The position numbers and the translations under genes were made by a program. Below, one piece after another: positions 1 through 59,317 of a DNA stretch of 64,000 nt. Each line of letters opens with the position of its first letter. Position 1 is the stretch's first letter. The notes below the pieces were generated by a model that searched no databases, was not told the origin of the DNA, and was given only the letters and a program-made list of their open reading frames with translations. Origin of the DNA: an uncultured Clostridia bacterium (GTDB lineage Bacteria > Bacillota > Clostridia > TANB77 > CAG-508); the NCBI GenBank assembly GCA_934169575.1, contig CAKPOA010000005.1, forward strand, positions 5,797 through 69,796. The letters are read 5' to 3'.

Positions 1-569
1 TTTGCTTCTCCTTTAAATTTATATGCTCCATGGCTTGTTCCAATAGCAATTGCTAAAGAATCACAACCTGTTCTTTTTACAAATTCTTCAGCTTGTGCTG
101 GATCTGTATACATTGCATCAGATACTGCAACATTTACATCATCTTCTATTCCAGCAAGTTTTCCAAGTTCAGCTTCTACTACAACTCCATGTGCATGTGC
201 ATAATCAACAACTTCTTTTGTTAATCTAACATTTTCTTCAAAATCATATTTTGAACCATCAAACATTACAGATGTAAAACCTGCATCTACACACATTTTA
301 CAAGTTTCAAAATCTGGTCCGTGATCTAAATGGATCGCAATTGGAATATCTGGGTGTTCTTCAACTGCTGCTTCTACCATTTTCATCAAATAATTTATTT
401 TTGCATATTTTATTGCACTTGATGATGCTTGTAATATTACTGGAGATTTTTCCTCTGCAGCTGCATCAACTATTGCTTGTATTATTTCCATATTGTTTAC
501 ATTAAATGCTCCTATCGCAAATCCTTCTTTCATAGATTTTTCAAACATTTCCTTTGTTGTTACTAACAT
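1..569 (-). CDS. fba: Class II fructose-1,6-bisphosphate aldolase (N-terminal part; gene runs off left edge)
   Basis: Hand translation of the minus strand from ATG at 569-567 gives MLVTTKEMFEKSMKEGFAIGAFNVNNMEIIQAIVDAAAEEKSPVILQASS...HLDHGPDFETCKMCVDAGFTSVMFDGS, typical of class II FBA. Absent from the ORF track because it is truncated by the window edge. Confidence 0.85.
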   Translation of the reverse strand, partial: MLVTTKEMFEKSMKEGFAIGAFNVNNMEIIQAIVDAAAEEKSPVILQASSSAIKYAKINYLMKMVEAAVEEHPDIPIAIHLDHGPDFETCKMCVDAGFTSVMFDGSKYDFEENVRLTKEVVDYAHAHGVVVEAELGKLAGIEDDVNVAVSDAMYTDPAQAEEFVKRTGCDSLAIAIGTSHGAYKFKGEA

Positions 570-691
570 ATAAATCATTCCTTTCATTTTTGATTTTTTT
601 TATTGTATTACATTTTCAAAAAAATTACAATAGTTTTTTCTCAATCTTTACAAATACTTTTTTTCATGGTAAAATAATTTTGGTGATAAGA

Positions 692-1156
692 ATGAATAAT
701 AAAAAAATAATTGCAAAAAATCCTACAGCATATCATAATTATTTTATTGAAAATACAATAGAAACTGGTATTGTTCTATCAGGAACAGAAATAAAATCAA
801 TTCGTGCTGGCAAAGTAAATTTAAAAGACAGTTATGCAAATATTAAAAATGGAGAATGTTATATATATGGAATGCATATAAGTCCATATTCTCATGGCAA
901 TATTTATAACAAAGATCCATTAAGAGATAGAAAATTGTTATTAAATAAAAGAGAAATCAATAAATTATTTATAAAAATAAAACAAAATGGTTGTAGCCTA
1001 GTTCCTATATGTTTATATTTTAGTGGAAATTTTGTTAAATTAGAACTTGGTATTGGAAAAGGAAAAAAATTATATGACAAAAGGCAAGATATTGCTAAAA
1101 AAGATGCCCAAATGAAAATAAAAAAAGCAATTAGGCAAAATGAAAAAAATATTTAA
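692..1156 (+). CDS. smpB: SsrA-binding protein SmpB
   Basis: The C-terminal 154 aa of ORF 554..1156 (MNNKKIIAKNPTAYHNYFIENTIETGIVLSGTEIKSIRAGKVNLKDSYA...) match the SmpB family. The start is moved to the internal ATG at 692 because the upstream part is low-complexity read-through. Confidence 0.9.
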   Translation: MNNKKIIAKNPTAYHNYFIENTIETGIVLSGTEIKSIRAGKVNLKDSYANIKNGECYIYGMHISPYSHGNIYNKDPLRDRKLLLNKREINKLFIKIKQNGCSLVPICLYFSGNFVKLELGIGKGKKLYDKRQDIAKKDAQMKIKKAIRQNEKNI

Positions 1157-1186
1157 AAAAACGGCTTTACATTAGCCGTTTTTTGT
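1155..1186. terminator. Bidirectional rho-independent terminator between smpB and acpP
   Basis: AAAAAACGGCT-TTACATT-AGCCGTTTTTT: a 7-bp GC-containing stem flanked by an A-run and a T-run, lying between convergent genes. Confidence 0.6.
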
Positions 1187-1188
1187 TC

Positions 1189-1431
1189 TTATTGAACATT
1201 TTCTTTTATGTAATTTACAACATCTGCTACTGAAACAACTTTTTCTGCATCAGCATCAGGAATTTCTATATCAAATTCTTCTTCTAAAGCCATTATTAAT
1301 TCAACTAAATCAAGAGAGTCTGCTCCTAAGTCATCTATAAATGATGCTTCTTGTGTTACTGCATCCTCATTTACTTGTAATTGTTCAACTATTATTGCTT
1401 TTACTTTTTCAAATATTTCATCTGAACTCAT
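1189..1431 (-). CDS. acpP: Acyl carrier protein
   Basis: [20 protein letters not shown]...[27 protein letters not shown] carries the phosphopantetheine-site DSLD motif. Start set at the ATG at 1431, preceded by GAGGGGGTGAAC. Confidence 0.9.
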
Positions 1432-1497
1432 TAAAAGTTCACCCCCTCTCAACATGGTTATTTATTTCAAATAATTTCTTCATATTTGTCTGTTACA

Positions 1498-1526
1498 TTT
1501 ATAATATATGTTTTGTTTTTTGTCAA
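1498..1526 (-). promoter_or_regulatory. Candidate sigma-A promoter for acpP
   Basis: The minus strand reads TTGACA-N17-TATAAA upstream of acpP, inside the plsX-acpP gap. Confidence 0.35.
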
Positions 1527-1530
1527 TAGT

Positions 1531-2553
1531 TTATTTATTATTTTTTTCAAATTCTGTAATTAAATTTTCGACAGTTTTATTTTCAACAAATTTTTCTGCT
1601 TGTTTTATAGTAAATTCAAATAATTTTTCATCACTACTTCCATGTGCTTTTACAACAGGTTTTTTTACACCTAAAAACAATGCACCACCATATGATTTAT
1701 AATCTACCGTTTTAGCAAATCTATTTATAGCAGGTAATGATGGGCAAGCTAAAATCTTTGATAATAGATTTTTTGTCAAACTTTCTTTTAATGTAACTTT
1801 AACCAATTTTCCAAGTCCTTCTGCTGTTTTTAAAAAAACATTACCTGTAAAGCCATCTGTTACAATTGCATCAACATTACCAGAAAAAGCATCTCTTCCT
1901 TCAACATTACCAATAAAATTAATATTTAATTCTTCTGATTTTTCTTTTAATAATTTATATGTTTCTCTTACAAGTTCATTTCCTTTTGTTTCTTCAGTTC
2001 CAATATTTAATAGTCCTATTTTAGGATTTTCTACCCCAAATGTATTTCTAATATAAATACTTGCCATTTGAGCAAATTGTACTAAAGTCATTGGCTTACA
2101 ATTTGTATTTGAACCCGCATCAATTAATACTAGTCTGCTTTTATAAGCTGGTAATATTCCTGCTAATGCTGGTCTATCAATTCCTTTAATTCTTCCAACA
2201 AGTAAAGTTGCACCTGTAAGTAGTGCTCCAGAATTTCCAGCAGATATAAATACATCTCCTTCATCTTGTTTTAACATTTTAAATCCTACAACCATTGATG
2301 AATCTTTTTTTCTTTTTATTGCGACTGTAGGTATATCTTCCATCTCAATTGTTTCTGTTGCATCTTGGATTTTTAATCTTGGTGAAATTTCTTCAATTGT
2401 TTTACCATAAAATTCTTTTATTTTGTTTCTAATCACTTCTTCTTTTCCTATTAATATAACCTCAGCATTTATTTGATCAATTGCTTTAACAGCACCTTTT
2501 ATATTTGCATCTGGGGCATTATCTCCACCCATTGCATCTAATAGTATTTTCAT
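1531..2553 (-). CDS. plsX: Phosphate acyltransferase PlsX
   Basis: 340-aa ORF: MKILLDAMGGDNAP...ISAGNSGAL...VKAHGSS matches the PlsX family, in the conserved plsX-acpP arrangement. Confidence 0.9.
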   Translation of the reverse strand: MKILLDAMGGDNAPDANIKGAVKAIDQINAEVILIGKEEVIRNKIKEFYGKTIEEISPRLKIQDATETIEMEDIPTVAIKRKKDSSMVVGFKMLKQDEGDVFISAGNSGALLTGATLLVGRIKGIDRPALAGILPAYKSRLVLIDAGSNTNCKPMTLVQFAQMASIYIRNTFGVENPKIGLLNIGTEETKGNELVRETYKLLKEKSEELNINFIGNVEGRDAFSGNVDAIVTDGFTGNVFLKTAEGLGKLVKVTLKESLTKNLLSKILACPSLPAINRFAKTVDYKSYGGALFLGVKKPVVKAHGSSDEKLFEFTIKQAEKFVENKTVENLITEFEKNNK

Positions 2554-2675
2554 TTTAAAAACTCATTCCTTTCTCAAGGTTCAAACCTAATTCATATGTT
2601 CTTCCTTTTGTTTTGATATTTATATTTTAGTATCATTTCACAAAAAAAGCAATAGTTTTTTTAAAACTTTCAAAT

Positions 2676-5291
2676 TTAAATATATTTTTCTAATAATTTT
2701 TTACTAGAATTCACATTATTAACCTTTTTTTGTAATTCTATAATAAATATAGGCATAATAGAAATAATTGCTGTATATAGCCATTGTAGTCCATTTAAAG
2801 GTATTAAATCAAATATATTTGCAATATTTGGAACAATAACTACAATAATCTGTAAAATACTTCCTAAAATAAAACTTCCAATTAAAAATTTATTTTCAAA
2901 TAAACTTGAATTTAAAATAGAATTTTCAGATTTTATATTAAAACTATGTACTAATTCCAAAAGCCCTAAACACACAAAAGCCATTGTTCTACCAACTTCT
3001 AAGCCATAATATTTATTTCCAAGTGAAAAGGCAACAAGTGTCAATACACCAATCATAACACCTTCTGTTATAATTTTATTCCATAATCCTCCTGCAAATA
3101 AACTTTCTTTTGAATTACGTGGTTTTTTACTCATAATATTTTTTTCTTCTTTTTCTAATCCTAAAGCAATTGCAGGAAAAGAATCTGTAACTAAATTAAT
3201 CCACAATAATTGAATTGCAAGCAAAGGAGTTTCAAGCCCTAATAATAAGCCAACAAAAATTGTAACAATTTCTCCTATATTTGTTGCAATAAGAAAATGT
3301 ATTGCTTTTTTAATATTATTATAAATATTTCTTCCTTGTTTAACCGCTTCTACAATTGTAACAAAATTGTCATCTACTAATATCATATCAGCAGCATTTT
3401 TAGCAACATCTGTCCCTCCTTTTCCCATAGCAATACCAATATCCGCTTTTTTTAATGCAGGACTATCATTTACACCATCACCTGTCATAGCAACAACTGC
3501 ACCTGTTTTCTGCCAAGCTTTTACAATTCTAACTTTATGTTCTGGAGTAACTCTTGCAAAAACAGAAAACTCTGAGATTCTTTTTTCTAATTCTTTATCT
3601 GAAATATTATCTAATTCTGCACCAGTAATAGCCATATCTTTTTTGGTCAAAATACCAAGTTCTTTTGCAATTGCTTTTGCAGTTGCAATATGATCTCCTG
3701 TAATCATAACAGTTTTTATTCCAGCTTGCTTACATGTTTTAACAGCTTGTTTCACTCCATCTCTTGGTGGATCAATCATACCAATTAATCCTACAAATAC
3801 TAAATCATTTTCTATATTTTTTATATTATAATTTATATTAACATCTCTAAATCCAACTGCTAAAACTCTTAAGGCATTATCAGCCATTTTAGTATTTTGC
3901 ATTATAATTTTCTTTTTCTCATCTTCAGTAAGAAATTCTACTTTTCCATTTTTCCAAATTTTATTGCATTTTTCAATCAATACATCTGGAGCTCCTTTTG
4001 TAATACTTTTATATTTCCCATTCCATTTATGAACTGTTGTCATCATTTTTCTATTAGAATCAAATGGAATTTCATCAACTCTAGGTCTTATTTTATATAA
4101 ATTATCTTTATTAATTTTTTCATCTAAAGCTCTATTTACAATTGCCTTTTCTGTTGGTTCACCACAAATATCATATATTCCATTTTCTTGTTTTATGATA
4201 CAATCTGTACACATGCTTCCTAATTCCAATAATAATTTTGTGTCATCACTCACTACTTTTACTACAGTCATTTTATTTTGTGTAAGAGTACCTGTTTTAT
4301 CAGAACATATTACACTACTACTACCTAGAGTTTCAACAGCAGGCAATTTTCTTATTATACTATTTTTCTTTGCCATCTTTGTAACTCCAATTGAAAGCAT
4401 TATTGTAACAATAGCTGGTAATCCTTCTGGAATTGCCGCAACTGCAAGTCCAACAGAAGTCATAAACATTTCAATAGGCGGGATTTTCTTTAACAAACCA
4501 ATACCAAATATTACTATACAAATCACTAAACAAACAATACCTAAAATTTTTCCAACTTCACCCAATTTTTTTTGAATAGGTGTTTCAGGAGCATCTTCTT
4601 TTATTATCATATTTGCAATTTTTCCAATTTTAGTATCCATACCTGTTTCAGTAACAATTGCTTTTCCATGTCCAGATACAACAATACTTCCCATAAAAGC
4701 CATATTTCTCATATCACCTAATGTTATTTTTTCTTCATATATTCTATCAGTAATTTTGCTAACAGGTTCTATTTCGCCTGTTAAACTAGATTCTTCAATT
4801 TTTAAATTATAAGTTTCTACTATCCTACAATCTGCAGGCACAAAATTTCCATCTGAAAGTTCTATTATGTCTCCAGGTATAATTTCTTCTACATTTATTT
4901 CTTCAATATTTCCATCTCTTATAACCTTTGCCATATTAGGGGTTAATTTTTTTAAACTTTCTATAGACTTTTCGGCTTTTTGCTCTTGAATAAGTCCCAT
5001 AATTGCATTTAAAACAACAATTGCAATTATTATTATTGAATCAAAATAATCATTTTGTCCTTGTACATATGATATTCCTGCAGATATTATTGATGCAATA
5101 ATTAAAATTATAATCATAAAATCATTAAACTGCTTAAAAAATTTTATTATAATACTTTCTTTCTTTTTTTCATCCAATCTATTTTTGCCAAATTTGTTCC
5201 TCCTTTTCTCAACCTCTTTTTGTCCTAAACCATATTTTATGCTTGTCTTTAATGTTTCCTCAACATCTTCAATCTTTTTTGTATACCACAT
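2676..5291 (-). CDS. P-type (IIA-like) cation-transporting ATPase, probably Ca2+
   Basis: Contains the CSDKTGTLTQNKM phosphorylation motif, MITGDH, TGDGVNDSPALKKADIG and about 10 TM segments. Start moved to MWYTKK (ATG at 5291) behind AGGAGAGG. Confidence 0.85.
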   Translation of the reverse strand: MWYTKKIEDVEETLKTSIKYGLGQKEVEKRRNKFGKNRLDEKKKESIIIKFFKQFNDFMIIILIIASIISAGISYVQGQNDYFDSIIIIAIVVLNAIMGLIQEQKAEKSIESLKKLTPNMAKVIRDGNIEEINVEEIIPGDIIELSDGNFVPADCRIVETYNLKIEESSLTGEIEPVSKITDRIYEEKITLGDMRNMAFMGSIVVSGHGKAIVTETGMDTKIGKIANMIIKEDAPETPIQKKLGEVGKILGIVCLVICIVIFGIGLLKKIPPIEMFMTSVGLAVAAIPEGLPAIVTIMLSIGVTKMAKKNSIIRKLPAVETLGSSSVICSDKTGTLTQNKMTVVKVVSDDTKLLLELGSMCTDCIIKQENGIYDICGEPTEKAIVNRALDEKINKDNLYKIRPRVDEIPFDSNRKMMTTVHKWNGKYKSITKGAPDVLIEKCNKIWKNGKVEFLTEDEKKKIIMQNTKMADNALRVLAVGFRDVNINYNIKNIENDLVFVGLIGMIDPPRDGVKQAVKTCKQAGIKTVMITGDHIATAKAIAKELGILTKKDMAITGAELDNISDKELEKRISEFSVFARVTPEHKVRIVKAWQKTGAVVAMTGDGVNDSPALKKADIGIAMGKGGTDVAKNAADMILVDDNFVTIVEAVKQGRNIYNNIKKAIHFLIATNIGEIVTIFVGLLLGLETPLLAIQLLWINLVTDSFPAIALGLEKEEKNIMSKKPRNSKESLFAGGLWNKIITEGVMIGVLTLVAFSLGNKYYGLEVGRTMAFVCLGLLELVHSFNIKSENSILNSSLFENKFLIGSFILGSILQIIVVIVPNIANIFDLIPLNGLQWLYTAIISIMPIFIIELQKKVNNVNSSKKLLEKYI

Positions 5292-6072: not shown

Positions 6073-6142
6073 AAATAATCCTCCAATATTGTTTTGTTAA
6101 TATATTATGAATTTATTTTACTTTTGTGATTAGACATTACAA

Positions 6143-6340
6143 GTCAGCCTTAAAACGATTTAAACCTAAATATGGATATAGAATTGTTTTTGAAATACTG
6201 CGTAAGCGATCAAACGAGCAAAGCGAGTGCGATTGGAGCAATTTTGATTATATTAAATTTAAAATATGGAAATTGCGACTGCAAAGTATGAAAAAACAAT
6301 TCTATATACATATTTAGGTAATAAATTTAAAATAGCTGAC
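6143..6340 (+). repeat. Foldback element with conserved core, copy 1 of 4 (core 6195-6289)
   Basis: Core ...CTGCGTAAGCGATCAAACGAGCAAAGCGAGTGCGATTGGAGCAATTTT...GGAAATTGCGACTGCAAAGTAT is shared with 26253-26346, 36244-36338 and 45502-45595. The flanking arms (6165-6199 and 6285-6320) are complementary, and the ends are GTCAGC/GCTGAC. Confidence 0.85.
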
Positions 6341-6345
6341 ACTTT

Positions 6346-6789
6346 TTAGTAAATTTCTTTTGAAAGCAAAAATGCATCAGAATTTTTGTAATATTTTTTC
6401 CTTAATCCTACCTGCTTAAATCCATACTTTTTATACAAATTAATTGCAATAGTATTTATGGAAGAAACCTCCAAATTTATAGTTTTGCACTTACTTTTTT
6501 TAGCAATATTGATTAAATTTTCCAAAATAAAATTTGAAAATCCTTTACCTCTGTAGCATTTTTTTACAACAATATTATTAATTTCTGCAATATCTAAAAT
6601 GATTGAAATTCCAGCAAAACCAATAATTTCAGTATTTATTTTACACACACAATAGTAAGAACTTTCAGTTTCTAATTCATTTTTTAATATATTATAATTC
6701 CAAAAATCATCAAAATCTGTTTCTAAAATATCAGCTATTTGATTTAAATCGGAAGTTGTCATCTTTTCTATAATTAAATTATTTTCCAT
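6346..6789 (-). CDS. rimI: GNAT acetyltransferase, ribosomal-protein-alanine N-acetyltransferase-like
   Basis: 147-aa GNAT fold (VKKCYRGKGFSNFIL) located downstream of tsaE-tsaB in the canonical tsaE-tsaB-rimI order. Confidence 0.75.
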   Translation of the reverse strand: MENNLIIEKMTTSDLNQIADILETDFDDFWNYNILKNELETESSYYCVCKINTEIIGFAGISIILDIAEINNIVVKKCYRGKGFSNFILENLINIAKKSKCKTINLEVSSINTIAINLYKKYGFKQVGLRKKYYKNSDAFLLSKEIY

Positions 6790-26067: not shown

Positions 26068-26193
26068 AAAATCAACCCTTTCTTTATTTTGATAGCTATA
26101 TTTTTATTTTATTCTCTAACATTAATATATTATCACACTGTGGAAATATTAACAAGTATTTTTCTGATTTTTATGAAAAAAAATTACTGGATA

Positions 26194-26404
26194 GTTACTA
26201 GCCAGCCTTTTTAAATTTATTTCCTGAATATGTGTATGAAACTATTTTTGAAATACTGCGTAAGCGACCAAACGAACGGAGTGAGTGCGATTGGAGCAAT
26301 TTTCATTTATTTATTTTTAATTATGGAAATTGCGACTGCAAAGTATGAAAAAATAATTTCATACACATATTCAGGAAATAAATCTCTTTGTAGCTGACCA
26401 GTAA
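26194..26404 (+). mobile_element. Foldback element copy 2 of 4 (core 26253-26346), MITE-like with flanking 9-bp direct repeat
   Basis: Same core as copy 1. The terminal inverted repeat is TTACTAGCCAGC / GCTGACCAGTAA. TACTGGATA occurs immediately outside both ends (26185-26193 and 26405-26413). Confidence 0.75.
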
Positions 26405-31763: not shown

Positions 31764-31822
31764 TAGTTTTTGGAATTTTTTTCCATTTTTTATTGTTAGA
31801 TAATGTTTTATTTAAAATTAAC

Positions 31823-31890
31823 ATGAGGAAATAGTTGGAATATAAGCTTCTCATTACATCTCTTAGCTTATATTCCAACTATTTCCTTAT
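31823..31890. repeat. Long perfect palindromic hairpin between yigZ and spo0A
   Basis: GGAAATAGTTGGAATATAAGCT (31827-31848) and AGCTTATATTCCAACTATTTCC (31865-31886) form a 22-bp perfect stem extendable to about 26 bp, with a 16-nt loop. Confidence 0.8.
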
Positions 31891-31912
31891 AAAAATTAAT
31901 TCAAACCATTTT

Positions 31913-32536
31913 TTAACAAATCACTATATATTTATCACCAATTTTTTCATATTTTAATATATCAATCTTTTTATTTTCAACATCAGTTTCAAATATTGAA
32001 ACAAACTCATTTTTCAATTCAATATTGCAAATAGCATATTCAACATATTTAGTATCACTAATTTTAATAGAATTTTTATTACAATAATATTTAAAGTTTT
32101 CTAATTTATTATAATCAACATAAACAATAAATTCCATACCTAAGCACATTTCCAATTTTTCTGCATTATTTACCCCCTCGATAGTTGCATTTGAATATGC
32201 TCTTACAAGTCCACCAGTTCCAAGTAAAATACCACCAAAATATCTTGTAACAACAACTAAAATATTGCATAAATTATTATTTTTAAGTATATTAAGCATA
32301 GGTGCACCAGCAGTTCCTGATGGTTCCCCATCATCACTTGATTTTTCGATAATACTTCCATTTTCTAAAATTCTATAGCAACTACAATTATGTCTAGCAT
32401 CAAAATACTGTTTTTTTACTTGTTTAATTATTTCTTCAGCTTGTTTTTTGGATTCAACATAAAATATATTTGCAATAAATTTAGATTTTTTATCAATAAA
32501 CTCTCCAGATGATTTATCTTTTATTGTAACAAACAT
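31913..32536 (-). CDS. yigZ: IMPACT/YigZ family protein
   Basis: KSKFIANIF...ARHNCSCYRI...DDGEPSGTAGAPML matches UPF0029/IMPACT. Confidence 0.8.
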   Translation of the reverse strand: MFVTIKDKSSGEFIDKKSKFIANIFYVESKKQAEEIIKQVKKQYFDARHNCSCYRILENGSIIEKSSDDGEPSGTAGAPMLNILKNNNLCNILVVVTRYFGGILLGTGGLVRAYSNATIEGVNNAEKLEMCLGMEFIVYVDYNKLENFKYYCNKNSIKISDTKYVEYAICNIELKNEFVSIFETDVENKKIDILKYEKIGDKYIVIC

Positions 32537-36136: not shown

Positions 36137-36203
36137 GATGGCACCTCCAATACATATATAACATATTATATGTAAGTAATACCTAAAATGTTACTACTAT
36201 TAT

Positions 36204-36381
36204 AATGTAATATCTTTCATGAAATTAGTATTATACTTTTTTAATATTGCGTAAGCGATCAAACGAGCATAGCGAGTGCGATTGGAGCAATTTTCATTTT
36301 ATTAATTTTTAATATGGAAATTGCGACTGCAAAATATTAAAAAAGTATAATACTAATTTTATAATAAAAACATATTACATT
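36204..36381 (+). repeat. Foldback element copy 3 of 4 (core 36244-36338)
   Basis: Same core. The clamp is a 27-bp perfect stem, AAATTAGTATTATACTTTTTTAATATT (36222-36248) against 36333-36359. A 10-bp outer stem pairs 36204-36213 with 36372-36381, which overlaps the argS stop codon. Confidence 0.85.
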
Positions 36382-38087
36382 TTATCAGGCATTTCAATTC
36401 CTAATAAATTTGCTCCTTGTTTTAAAACTTTTCCTGTTGCCAAAGTCAAAAATACTCTTGCATTTTGAATATTTTTATCATCACAAATAATCTTGTTTTC
36501 ATTATAAAAACTACTATAAGCTTTTGCTAAATCAAGTAAAAATCTAGCTAAAATAGAAGGCTCATTTTTTTCCGTTACTTGAATTAATACATTTTCAAAA
36601 TTATACAATAATTTAATAATATTTAAACTATATTCATCTTTTAAAATATCAATGCAAACATCTTTAGCATTTGGCATTATTCCACTTTTTTCAATTACAC
36701 TTTTTGTTCTAACATATGTATATTGTATATATGGACCTGTTTCACCTTGAAAATTCAATATTGTATTCCAGTCGAATATTTCATCTTTTAGTCTATTTGT
36801 TGACAAATCATTAAAAATAACTGCACCAATTCCAACTTTTTTTGCAACATCATCTTTATTTTCTAAATCAGGATTTTTTTCCTCAATAATTTTCTTAGCT
36901 CTATTTATAGCTTCATTTAATAAATCTTCAAGTTTTATAATATTTCCTTCTCTTGTTGACATTTTTCCTGTAGGCAATTGAACCATACCAAAAGGAACAT
37001 GAACAAGACCATCTATATATTTTTTATCTAGTCCTAAATATTTTGCTACTGCAAAGATTTGTTTAAAATGTAAAACTTGTTCATATGATGTAACATATAT
37101 ACTTTTATCATAATCATAAGTTCTTGCTCTATACATTAATGCTGCTAAATCTCTTGTAGCATATGTTGTTGAACCATTTGATTTTACAATTATACATGGT
37201 GTATCAATTCCATCTGATTCTAAGTTAACAATTTTTGCCCCTTGTGAATCAGTTAATTTTCCATTTTTTTCTAAGATTTCAATGATTTCATTCATCTTAT
37301 CAGCATAAAAAGCTTCCCCATTCCAAGAATCAAATTTGCTTCCAAGTATATCATAAACCTTTTTAAATTCTTTTAAACTAAGATCTTTAAATTTTTGCCA
37401 AATTTCAACACAATAAGGTTCTCTATCTTCAAGCATCTTAAAATTGTCTCTACATTTTTCTAATACACCTTCATCTTCTTTACATAGCTGATTTATTCTT
37501 ACATAAATTTTTGTTAATTCATTAATTGGGTCATTTTCAATATCATATTCATTTCCCCATAATTTATAACCTTCAATAAGTTTACCAAATTGTGTTCCAT
37601 AATCACCTAAATGATTTACTCCTATAACATTAAATCCTAAGTATTTATATATATTATATAATGAGCCACCTATAACTGTTGAACGTAAATGCCCAATATG
37701 AAAAGGTTTTGCAATATTAGGAGCAGAATAATCTATTACAACATTTTTATTTTTTCCAAATTCAGATTTTCCATATTCTTTTTCACTACCAACTTTTTCT
37801 ATAACTTGTTTAATAAATAAATCTTTATTAATATAAAAATTCAAATAACCACCTACAACATCAACTTTTTCTATATTTGCTCCTAATTCATTATTTATAT
37901 TAGCTTTTATTTCTGTTGCAATAATTTGAGGTGATTTTTTTAATGTTTTTGCAAGACGAAAACATGGAAAAGCATAATCTCCATTTTTACTATCTTTTGG
38001 TATCTCTATAAAAGATATTACATCATTTACATCAACATTTGTAATATCTGCAATTTTTTTTGCAATTTCTAATTTAAAATCTATCAT
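36375..38087 (-). CDS. argS: Arginyl-tRNA synthetase
   Basis: 570 aa, SAPNIAKPFHIGHLRS (HIGH) and MSTREG (KMSK-like) motifs. Confidence 0.95.
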   Translation of the reverse strand: MIDFKLEIAKKIADITNVDVNDVISFIEIPKDSKNGDYAFPCFRLAKTLKKSPQIIATEIKANINNELGANIEKVDVVGGYLNFYINKDLFIKQVIEKVGSEKEYGKSEFGKNKNVVIDYSAPNIAKPFHIGHLRSTVIGGSLYNIYKYLGFNVIGVNHLGDYGTQFGKLIEGYKLWGNEYDIENDPINELTKIYVRINQLCKEDEGVLEKCRDNFKMLEDREPYCVEIWQKFKDLSLKEFKKVYDILGSKFDSWNGEAFYADKMNEIIEILEKNGKLTDSQGAKIVNLESDGIDTPCIIVKSNGSTTYATRDLAALMYRARTYDYDKSIYVTSYEQVLHFKQIFAVAKYLGLDKKYIDGLVHVPFGMVQLPTGKMSTREGNIIKLEDLLNEAINRAKKIIEEKNPDLENKDDVAKKVGIGAVIFNDLSTNRLKDEIFDWNTILNFQGETGPYIQYTYVRTKSVIEKSGIMPNAKDVCIDILKDEYSLNIIKLLYNFENVLIQVTEKNEPSILARFLLDLAKAYSSFYNENKIICDDKNIQNARVFLTLATGKVLKQGANLLGIEMPDKM

Positions 38088-45216: not shown

Positions 45217-45447
45217 TTACATTTCTACAATAATTTTAGCTAAATCCTTTTTACTTACACAAATTTCATATCCCCTTAGTTCAATACTTACAGGGTCACC
45301 CATTGGTGCAATTTTCTTTATTTTTACTTTTGTTCCTTTTGTAAATCCCATATCAAGCAAATGTCTTTTTTTCTTTTTGTCATTAAATTCTAAACTTAAA
45401 ATTATTCCAGCTTGACCTCTTCTTAATTGTGATAAATTTAATTTCAT
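45217..45447 (-). CDS. feoA: FeoA family protein
   Basis: 76-aa SH3-like FeoA (LDMGFTKGTKVKIKKIAPMGDPVSIELRGYEI) immediately upstream of feoB. Confidence 0.85.
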   Translation of the reverse strand: MKLNLSQLRRGQAGIILSLEFNDKKKKRHLLDMGFTKGTKVKIKKIAPMGDPVSIELRGYEICVSKKDLAKIIVEM

Positions 45448-45471
45448 AACTTACTCCTTGTATATTTTTTC

Positions 45472-45625
45472 TTATATAGCTAATATTATATTATTTTATG
45501 AATACCGCGTAAGCGACCAAACGAACGAAGTGAGTGCGATTGGAGCAATTTTCATTATATTAATTTTTAATAAGAAAATTGCGACTGCAAGGTATGAAAA
45601 AAATAATATAATATTAGCTATATAA
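45472..45625 (+). repeat. Foldback element copy 4 of 4 (core 45502-45595)
   Basis: Same core. The 26-bp perfect clamp is TTATATAGCTAATATTATATTATTTT (45472-45497) against 45600-45625, and the core-closing helix is ATACC/GGTAT. The left end lies only 24 nt from the feoA ATG. Confidence 0.85.
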
Positions 45626-45690
45626 AAAGATTTTTATGATAATTAATTATATTCATATAAATAAAAAAAATGACAGAGAAAAATTCCCTA

Positions 45691-48620: not shown

Positions 48621-48697
48621 TGGTAGCGATGGTGGGACTTGAACCTACGACCTGCCGGGTATGAACCGGATGCTCTAGCCAGCTGAGCTACATCGCC
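48621..48697 (-). tRNA. tRNA with CAT anticodon (elongator Met-like; Ile2/lysidine not excluded)
   Basis: The reverse complement GGCGATGTAGCTCAGCTGGCTAGAGCATCCGGTTCATACCCGGCAGGTCGTAGGTTCAAGTCCCACCATCGCTACCA folds as a cloverleaf with an encoded CCA. One A-C mismatch in the T stem. Confidence 0.85.
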
Positions 48698-58964: not shown

Positions 58965-59317
58965 AATAAAAAAAGAGTAAATCTGTAAGCCGGGTTCTGT
59001 CATTTAAATTAGTCATTTATCTAGGACATATATCACTATATGCCTCAAGCCACGCATTTAAGAAGTGCCGAGCAAGCATATCTTCTCATTTAGGTGTTGC
59101 TCCAGATGGGGTTTACATTGACCCAGTATGTCACCATACTAGCGGTAAGCTCTTACCTCACCTTTTCACCCTTACCACTTTTGTGGCGGTTATTTTCTGT
59201 TGCACTTTCCTTAAGGTCACCCTCACTAGACGTTATCTAGCATCATCGCTCTATGGAGCCCAGACTTTCCTCTCGTAATTCCTTTCGAAATTTACCAGCG
59301 ACTAATCAATTTACTCT
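58965..59317 (-). ncRNA. rnpB: RNase P RNA
   Basis: The minus strand contains GAGGAAAGTCTGGGCTCC, ACAGAAAATAACCGCC, GGTAAGGGTGAAAAGGTGAGGTAAGAGCTTACC and ACAGAACCCGGCTTA. P1 pairs AGAGTAAAT with ATTTACTCT. The region is locally GC-rich. Confidence 0.85.

Follow-up and report, generated by a model that had tools for sequence, protein, structure and literature searches.

The repeats described here probably form a previously undescribed family of MITE-like transposable elements, small (~165-211 nt), non-coding and folded back on themselves, which occurs in a few lineages of spore-forming gut Clostridia that are uncultured and low in GC. As the sequences indicate, the moving unit is the entire hairpin, arms and core together, which generates 9-bp target-site duplications (TSDs); its landing sites are AT-rich spacers, near terminators or in place of them, and individual copies are subsequently eroded by hairpin-associated deletions. 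Our confidence attaches to this mobile foldback reading as a whole, and the single steps of the mechanism proposed further below are each less certain.

Four copies, c1 to c4, lie in the stretch of DNA that was analysed (64,000 nucleotides; hereafter the window), which has a GC content of ~27% and holds nearly all of its genes on the - strand. Each copy occupies a spacer between housekeeping genes, 9-20 kb from the next: c1 between genes for a GNAT acetyltransferase and AhpC, c2 between those for a protein of unknown function and MurE, c3 between those for ArgRS and a sigma factor, and c4 between those for an RNHCP protein and FeoA, the FeoA call being taken from orthologous contigs. The 21-mer GAGTGCGATTGGAGCAATTTT has exactly four matches in the window, all on the + strand (6225, 26283, 36274 and 45532), where shuffled sequence is expected to give none. 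Reading the sequence from one P1 strand to the other, P1 being the helix that closes the core, delimits cores at 6195-6289, 26253-26346, 36244-36337/8 and 45502-45595, and a scan of the window with a covariance model built from 18 copies returned c1 to c4 only, at 109-119 bits. The four + strand copies of the preliminary description are thus borne out. In all four, the conserved block reads GCGTAAGCGAYCAAACGARN-loop-NYGAGTGCGATTGGAGCAATTTT-(AT-rich)-RAAATTGCGACTGCAA, is closed by ATACY/RGTAT or ATATT/AATAT, and is followed outward by the arms. The features are as follows.

6143..6340, + strand: whole foldback c1, outer stem GTCAGC/GCTGAC, without remaining target duplication
About 6136-6149 and 6334-6352: decayed subfamily-A termini of c1
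6199..6286, + strand: core module of c1, T + GCGTAAGCGA...CTGCAA + AG; covariance match 6192-6292, 111 bits
6195-6199 with 6285-6289: P1 of c1
26185..26193, no strand: left 9-bp target-site duplication of c2, TACTGGATA
26194..26404, + strand: whole foldback c2, 211 nt, termini GTTACTAGCCAGCC and AGCTGACCAGTAA, arms of 35 nt, 97% complementary
26257..26343, + strand: core module of c2, 87 nt; covariance match 26250-26349, 118 bits
26405..26413, no strand: right 9-bp target-site duplication of c2, TACTGGATA
36201..36384, + strand: whole foldback c3, where the argS terminator stands in a sister lineage
36219-36248 and 36333-36362: near-perfect arms of c3, 30 nt, 97% complementary, with looser pairing beyond
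36249..36332, + strand: core of c3 (GCG...GCAA), P1 ATATT/AATAT; covariance match 36241-36340, 118.9 bits
45469..45628, + strand: whole foldback c4, arms of 38 nt, 89% complementary
45507..45590, + strand: core of c4 (GCG...GCAA), P1 ATACC/GGTAT; covariance match 45499-45598, 115.8 bits

Arms surround every core in the window; they measure 28-38 nt, are 89-97% complementary and are separated by 84-100 nt. The foldback of c1 has a minimum free energy of -61.6 kcal/mol on the + strand (z = -9) and of -51.9 kcal/mol on the other; both strands lie far below their shuffles, and the + strand lies lower still. A recount by hand confirmed the five stem positions at which c1 and c2 differ in both partners with pairing intact, and the P1 variants ATACT/AGTAT, ATACC/GGTAT and ATATT/AATAT are as first described. 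A search of the window for additional terminus or inner-arm motifs found none above chance.

Beyond the window the family comprises ~25 copies, all from contigs of uncultured Clostridia with 23-30% GC, so that the label "four-copy" used at first holds for the window and fails for the family. A scan of species-representative genomes gave three copies (two in a rabbit-gut MAG named 'uncultured Clostridia bacterium', one in UMGS1229) and a metagenome scan ~20 further ones; at one locus (L002) the covariance model picked up a second, diverged copy. Four candidate loci (L019, L025-L027) were discarded as chance matches in high-GC coding DNA. The elements were originally said to run opposite to every flanking gene, and they do so in the window, whereas over the family ~16 of the scorable copies are antisense to their adjoining genes and 5 are sense (binomial p = 0.03). 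Orientation is therefore biased, not fixed; the copy at L003, for instance, lies in sense orientation between rnhB and the next gene. No reading frame is conserved across the copies. Two frames are open across the core, but the mini-hairpin loop, which measures 3, 4 or 6 nt, throws both out of register from copy to copy, and this rules out a small protein.

Conservation declines from the centre outward. Pairwise identity averages 0.84 in the core even with its variable loops counted, 0.70 over the inner 20 nt of the arms (ATTATTTTT-GAA-ATACY and RGTAT-GAA-AAAATAAT), 0.58 over the next 30 nt and 0.47 in the far flanks. The stems had been called copy-specific, which is only partly so, since c1, c2 and the copies at L002, L010 and L013 form a subfamily with homologous arms and termini (end GTTACTAGTCAGCC); another subfamily (L012, L020, L022, L023) ends in AAGTTTCGGTATTTTT, and the remaining copies have still different arms. 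Across the family the arms extend over 28-40 nt or longer to the ends of the element at 85-97% complementarity, and all arms together contain 743 Watson-Crick pairs, 22 G·T, 10 A·C, 62 other mismatches and 60 gap positions. Two copies (L006, L011) join left and right arms from different subfamilies and may be assembly chimeras. Many contigs terminate within the core, and the L010 contig is a chimera of 57% and 25% GC, which shows that the repeat breaks assemblies.

The ~87-nt core itself is predicted to fold on one strand only, the + strand, as a junction of helices that also holds invariant unpaired purines. We tested a specified pairing on the 18-copy alignment, composed of P1, the hairpin GC-GYAA-GC with its stem of 2 bp, P2 (YCAA/UUGG), the mini-hairpin that P2 bears, and P3 (GCAAUUUUCAU/AUGGAAAUUGC), which holds a conserved U·G. 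The mini-hairpin consists of C-G, G·A, A·G, R-Y and N-N pairs, hence with a tandem G·A, and is capped by a loop of 3-6 nt. In this alignment 97.6% of the cells are paired and six pairs have both sides changed. None of 500 shuffles reached the observed pairing and covariation, and sliding the partners by 1-3 columns left only 26-43% of cells paired. The G-C to A-U swap noticed earlier in the mini-hairpin is real, and in the wider set of copies the two positions concerned show five different pairings (GC/GC, AC/GU, AU/AU, GU/AC and GA/UC). RNAalifold mis-pairs this hairpin owing to the loop gaps, and the covariation favours the tested version over the RNAalifold one. The preliminary description is also right about the GYAA loop, the helix GCAATTTT/RAAATTGC and the mismatch GAA/GAA, each of which is present.

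That the + strand carries the structure, as had been proposed, agrees with two further observations. Cells of the G·U type outnumber those of the A·C type by 25 to 2 in the core; two inherited positions supply most of the G·U cells (19-48, with C-G in 12 copies and U·G in the other 6, and 57-88, with U·G in 12), so that the number of independent G·U events is nearer 8-9 against 2. In 16 of 18 copies, moreover, the core folds more stably on the + strand than on the other (mean -20.6 versus -16.3 kcal/mol); fold z-scores of the core alone are modest (-1.2 to -3.2). The GYAA loop, the GA, the GCGA bulge and the GAC...CAA tail are unpaired yet invariant, while the helices vary; this pattern is typical of what a fold under selection would leave. 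We regard the core as a clean candidate for a new structured motif of RNA or single-stranded DNA, and its sequence would fit either. A K-turn is ruled out by the Watson-Crick pairs that flank the tandem G·A on both sides, and the ribozyme classes are ruled out on anatomy.

These features could also be taken to mean that the core functions as a structured non-coding RNA, for example a protein-binding one or a ribozyme, which cleavage of the long double-stranded clamp would free from longer transcripts, with mobility serving dispersal only. Such an RNA would account for the invariant unpaired GYAA loop, tandem G·A, GCGA bulge and tail beside covarying helices, for the strong G·U excess on the + strand and for a core kept across lineages while the arms diverge, and at L003 the + strand lies within an operon spacer and would be transcribed. 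We nevertheless judge it unlikely. Single copies are dispensable, as strain deletions and the lack of the core in most contigs of the c2 site show (see below), and ~16 of 21 copies run antisense to the adjoining genes. Searching the copies for a conserved promoter or terminator of a + strand transcript gave none: some have the sequence TTGCGA-N16-18-(A)ATAAT on that strand, but shuffled sequences are as rich in promoter-like sites, which rules these out as promoters or terminators of the element's own. The modest z-scores and the lack of any resemblance in Rfam point in the same direction.

Evidence for mobility of the whole hairpin comes from its ends. Perfect 9-bp direct repeats directly abut the foldback on both sides in three copies of three different arm subfamilies, namely c2, L003 (TATTAAAAA, element of 165 nt) and L020 (TTGTTTGTA, element of 211 nt); most copies are without a recognisable TSD, which is either absent or decayed. 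The 87-nt core alone has none, and its 5' flank varies (ATAC, ATAT, ATTC) and covaries with the core 3' end. The termini of the three TSD-bearing copies are unlike one another (GTTACTAG..., TTTTATATAA... and TTTTAGCTCTGG...), while the TSD length and the centre are common to all three. One transposase recognising conserved terminal inverted repeats fits poorly with this difference in terminal sequences. There are two possible explanations: several related transposases may each act on their own termini, the core being kept for another reason, or recognition may be independent of terminal sequence. Neither in the window nor in the family loci examined was a transposase or an autonomous partner found, and an insertion sequence at L071 (DDE_Tnp_1) was rejected as partner because its ends are unrelated.

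Comparison with relatives shows where the element is absent. One sister lineage, whose sigma factor is 95% identical, has the argS-sigma synteny of the c3 site but not the element; its spacer of 94 nt, whose flanks align on both sides, holds an ordinary intrinsic terminator (AAAAAAGACTATTACC-ATTTTC-GGTAATAGTTTTTTT), although the site has diverged and does not amount to a clean empty site. The P0145 contigs show the occupied c3 state again or break at the core. At c2 a sister contig (L056) is without the element, with a spacer too diverged for a clean empty site, and at c4 the nearest relatives have lost synteny.

The location of c3 at the place of the sister lineage's argS terminator raises the question of whether the elements have been domesticated as regulatory hairpins (terminators, mRNA stabilisers or 5'UTR structures) and are retained for what they do to neighbouring genes. 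c4 could be read in the same way: only ~10 nt separate its left end from the ribosome-binding site of feoA, so that its - strand probably belongs to the leader of that gene, and c4 is present in all 7 contigs listed, of 24 read, with a constant spacer length and an identical core. Against this, c2 and c4 sit 43-55 nt downstream of the upstream genes' own intact terminators, the hairpins are not consistently followed by a U-tract, the folding signal lies on the strand opposite the genes, and copies have been lost without visible replacement, all of which makes a regulatory role very unlikely as the explanation of the family.

Losses of this kind are seen at three sites. In strains L034 and L036 only the outer GTCAGC...GCTGAC ends of c1 are left, with deletion junctions at TTTA and TTTAAAT repeats, and in strain L052 a deletion in c3 removes 128 nt between TATAA repeats. 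At the third, the c2 site, ~20 of 24 contigs have both arms intact and lack exactly 87 nt, that is T + core + AG, so that their + strand reads ...TTTTTGAAATAC|TATGAAAAAATAA... The junctions of this indel share a single T (..ATAC|TGCG.. and ..AAAG|TATG..), and the coreless remnant reads TGAAA-TACTA-TGAAA; a TGAAA/TGAA direct repeat on either side of P1 also occurs in c1, c2, c4, L006 and L016, and TTGAAA in L015.

Taken for itself, the c2 polymorphism would suit a core that is a separate mobile module, entering and precisely leaving the tips of palindromic carriers such as older foldbacks or terminator hairpins. Exactly 87 nt are present or absent between intact arms with a junction homology of 1 nt, the core varies far less than its flanking arms, a terminator hairpin is replaced by the element at c3, and the coreless sequence with its TGAAA-type repeats flanking P1 resembles an excision footprint; the movement of ssr9/MITEPpu9 into REP palindromes by ISPpu9 offers a parallel (PMC12288879). 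We consider this quite unlikely, because the same allele is better read as a loss. The near-identical arms found at other loci (L006, L013) carry the core; a BLAST search of all arms against ~313 kb of family-locus sequence found no arms-only copy besides the c2 allele, which also rules out the arms as an independent abundant palindrome family; and the P1 pairs that straddle the indel boundary covary, which suits a single co-evolving unit more than an insert and its target. The identical dinucleotide of IS110-type junctions is missing as well. Most likely, then, to judge from these sequences, the c2 element arrived with its core and lost it later. The coreless allele could have arisen when a polymerase jumped from one side of the P1 base to the other and so bypassed the hairpin; the c1 and c3 deletions, which likewise face across the stem, show that such jump-type events are common at copies of the family.

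That the hairpin forms during replication, as is revealed by these deletions between short direct repeats on opposite sides of the stem, bears on the compensated arms too. Compensation in a long inverted repeat can also arise by template switching within a DNA palindrome, and is alone no proof of RNA. Quasi-palindrome correction by template switching is established in bacteria. The arms might accordingly be a DNA-level by-product of intrastrand template switching and deletion, without any selection on RNA or single strands, and their near-perfect match over 30-60 nt, far beyond what transposase binding to terminal inverted repeats needs, speaks for it. We see this as a possible account, though one less likely to hold than to fail, as it leaves unexplained why an asymmetric 87-nt centre survives unchanged, why the GAA/GAA mismatch is retained instead of being corrected, and why G·U exceeds A·C on one strand.

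Under the mobile foldback reading that we prefer, a putative transposase acting in trans would insert the whole hairpin at 9-bp staggered cuts. Propagation or retention would then depend on the conserved core and the inner arms, since the centre is constant while the termini differ between subfamilies. Selection would read the core as a single-stranded + strand fold, either in a transcript or in single-stranded DNA, and the arms would stay complementary because a foldback is required, because template switching corrects the palindrome, or for both reasons. The core may serve as a cis-acting site or as an RNA. A bolder version, to which we give little credence, holds that the 87-nt core is a new structured motif that steers the element by its fold, be it as a single-strand recognition module through which a transposition system could mobilise any hairpin closed around it, irrespective of the termini, or as an excisable module, possibly specifying a catalytic RNA, that rides in palindromes. 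Were the former true, it would explain how constant 9-bp TSDs come to stand beside unrelated termini. On the practical side, the family adds to the repeats of uncultured gut Clostridia, its elements break or mis-join metagenome assemblies, and the cored, coreless and deleted alleles at fixed loci are strain-level markers.

Comparison with databases yielded no described relative. A scan of the window against Rfam 15 at gathering thresholds reported RNase P and one tRNA only, and scans of c1, c4 and the L015 copy with E-values up to 10 gave a best E of 0.09, far under gathering scores, in keeping with the initial view that the element matches no known non-coding RNA family; the unmatched families include hammerhead, twister, pistol, hatchet, the HEARO/IS605-orfB motifs, 6S and Y RNA. 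The family was not found in plasmid and phage collections (distant-mode BLAST) or in viral contigs (pattern scans), where every hit proved to be a chance match to coding DNA of high GC, and a full-text literature search gave no match to the core sequence.

Several classes of palindromic or strand-specific elements invite comparison. Integron attC sites carry R''/L''...L'/R' boxes (RYYYAAC...GTTRRRY) and bound gene cassettes beside intI. The copies described here stand 9-20 kb apart among housekeeping genes, with termini of GTTAC...GTAAC, the inverse arrangement, and attC sites are thereby ruled out. HUH-type transposition leaves no TSD and prefers the lagging-strand template, and PATEs of the IS200/IS605 type insert 3' of a fixed tetra- or pentanucleotide and have subterminal hairpins at both ends. 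REP/REPIN elements and these PATEs are, like the family, hairpin-forming, strand-specific, non-coding, intergenic and multi-copy, and the arms of REPINs stay complementary. The 9-bp TSDs rule out an IS200/IS605-type PATE for the whole element. A single-strand model of the IS608 type acting at the replication fork was also rejected: if gene orientation and GC skew are taken as guides to the direction of replication, the strand that folds is in most cases opposite to the gene-sense strand, presumed to be the leading one, and would thus mostly be the leading-strand template, contrary to the lagging-strand rule of HUH elements. REPs are 20-40 nt long, GC-rich and tagged with GTAG or CGTC (PMC3733652), so that a RAYT-dependent REP/REPIN origin is ruled out for an AT-rich element of 165-211 nt with an asymmetric 87-nt centre and without the tag.

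A further parallel is MITEPpu9 of Pseudomonas putida, the ssr9 module of the IS110-family element ISPpu9, which specifies a structured RNA, sits in palindromic repeats and has been read as a hitch-hiking selfish element; it recombines at an AG dinucleotide found at both junctions, leaves no TSD and has conserved A'/B' end boxes (PMC12288879). In both cases a small module lies inside a palindrome and is present or absent independently of its surroundings. The differences are that the whole foldback is here bounded by 9-bp TSDs, that an IS110-type gene was not seen, and that the junctions of the c2 core indel share a single T in place of the same dinucleotide, which rules out an IS110-type module.

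In behaviour, the closest described analogue would be bcr1 of the Bacillus cereus group, a mobile repeat of ~155 bp with direct repeats, whose structure is maintained at the RNA level by compensated base changes (Okstad 2004, Klevan 2007 and Kristoffersen 2011, as summarised in PMC3184786). As far as that summary goes, bcr1 shares with the family a home in Firmicutes, a length of ~150-200 nt, the lack of coding capacity, short direct repeats, a distribution that varies among related strains, and compensatory changes that maintain the fold, those of bcr1 being read at the level of single-stranded RNA. On the same account, bcr1 forms a cruciform of two stem-loops and is known to be transcribed, whereas the family forms a single long clamp that closes a junction of helices; the direct repeats are of 5 bp in bcr1 and of 9 bp in the family.

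The MITEs remain the class to which the family belongs. Prokaryotic MITEs are defined as AT-rich, intergenic elements of <500 bp with terminal inverted repeats (TIRs), flanking direct repeats and stem-loop transcripts (PMC10969869), and the family falls within this published definition as an unusual variant. Its TSD-bounded copies are non-coding and 165-211 nt long; the arms reach the ends of the element, with end sequences that depend on the subfamily; 9-bp repeats flank c2, L003 and L020; and ~25 dispersed copies, the absence of c3 from the sister lineage and the deletion alleles at c1, c2 and c3 attest to its spread. The preliminary description had set MITE and structured element against each other, an opposition that does not hold, given that the element is itself MITE-like in its 9-bp TSDs, in the absence of c3 from the sister lineage and in its strain deletions. 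Canonical MITEs such as Correia/NEMIS, ERIC, RUP and QMITE2 are likewise <500 bp and without a transposase gene, and share inverted-repeat ends, TSDs in young copies, AT-rich intergenic sites, stable stem-loops and presence or absence among strains (PMC10969869, PMC3184786). In those elements, however, inverted repeats of ~4-30 bp are conserved and the centre is free, whereas here the inverted repeats make up almost the entire element, the centre is conserved (0.84), the termini vary and the TSD is constant at 9 bp. A layout in which the folded centre is conserved, the termini are free and the duplication is fixed at 9 bp is that of the textbook MITE reversed, and leads to a concrete and testable question: what does the mobilising enzyme recognise?

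The copy 4 foldback (45469-45628) has its left end about 10 nt from the ribosome-binding site of feoA and 22 nt from the feoA ATG (window 45445-45469), and the terminator of the next gene upstream stands on the other side of the element.

Reverse complement of 45454-45459: feoA ribosome-binding site, AAGGAG
45693-45671: terminator of the RNHCP gene, upstream of feoA

Because the foldback end is so close to the feoA start signals and the RNHCP terminator is placed as it is, this layout of the sequence implies that the feoAB leader or promoter must run through, or sit within, the copy 4 element.

Copy 1 (6143-6340) differs between strains. At window position 6246 its allele carries a G that produces a G·G mismatch in P3, a helix inside the core, whereas the L029, L031 and L033 strains and the other aligned copies carry a C. 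In the L029 allele, moreover, the copy 1 arm has a pair in place of its G·A mismatch, and there is an additional G·T, which only the + strand reads as a wobble. In both strains that have lost copy 1 down to its outer ends (L034 937-1876 and L036 802-1402), only 58 residues of ahpC are left, and after them come an HTH_36 gene and further small ORFs; this looks like an insertion into ahpC.

Arms of different subfamilies, the groups of copies sharing arm sequence, also occur together in some copies as assembled. Two copies (L006 751-850 and L011 894-994) combine a left arm resembling that of copy 2 or copy 1 with a right arm resembling that of copy 4 or of L016, another family member. Either copies recombine via their common core, or separate loci were fused at the repeat during assembly. 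Numerous metagenome contigs end within the core (L002, L005, L009, L013, L014 and L075-L079), and in L010 DNA of 57% GC is fused to DNA of 25% GC beside a copy (1-3300 versus 3300-4004); the foldback repeat is a frequent break or mis-join point in assemblies. A solo left arm stands immediately upstream of the complete copy in L010.

Two inverted repeats without the core, and one transposase gene, were also recorded.

Window 31816-31897: long inverted repeat, arms of 33 nt, 88% complementary, loop of 16 nt
L003 2727-2855: perfect inverted repeat of 22 nt, halves 85 nt apart, unrelated sequence between them
L071 500-2440 (related lineage): DDE_Tnp_1 transposase gene, 576 aa, just inside a sigma-factor gene

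The first, directly downstream of a UPF0029 gene (31913-32536, - strand), is probably one of this genome's long AT-rich terminator-type hairpins; a similar 25-bp perfect hairpin lies between convergent genes at L001 1679-1734. The L003 repeat may represent a second foldback family with another centre. The L071 insertion is flanked on both sides by a duplication of about 105 bp of upstream region and sigma-factor gene start, and its ends, compared with the foldback family, showed no relation to it.

The window further encodes two RNAs.

58970-59317, - strand: RNase P RNA, bacterial class A (290 bits)
48624-48697, - strand: the one tRNA

In combination with BofC, ComEC and a sigma factor of the sporulation type, these fit a host that is a spore-forming member of the Clostridia.
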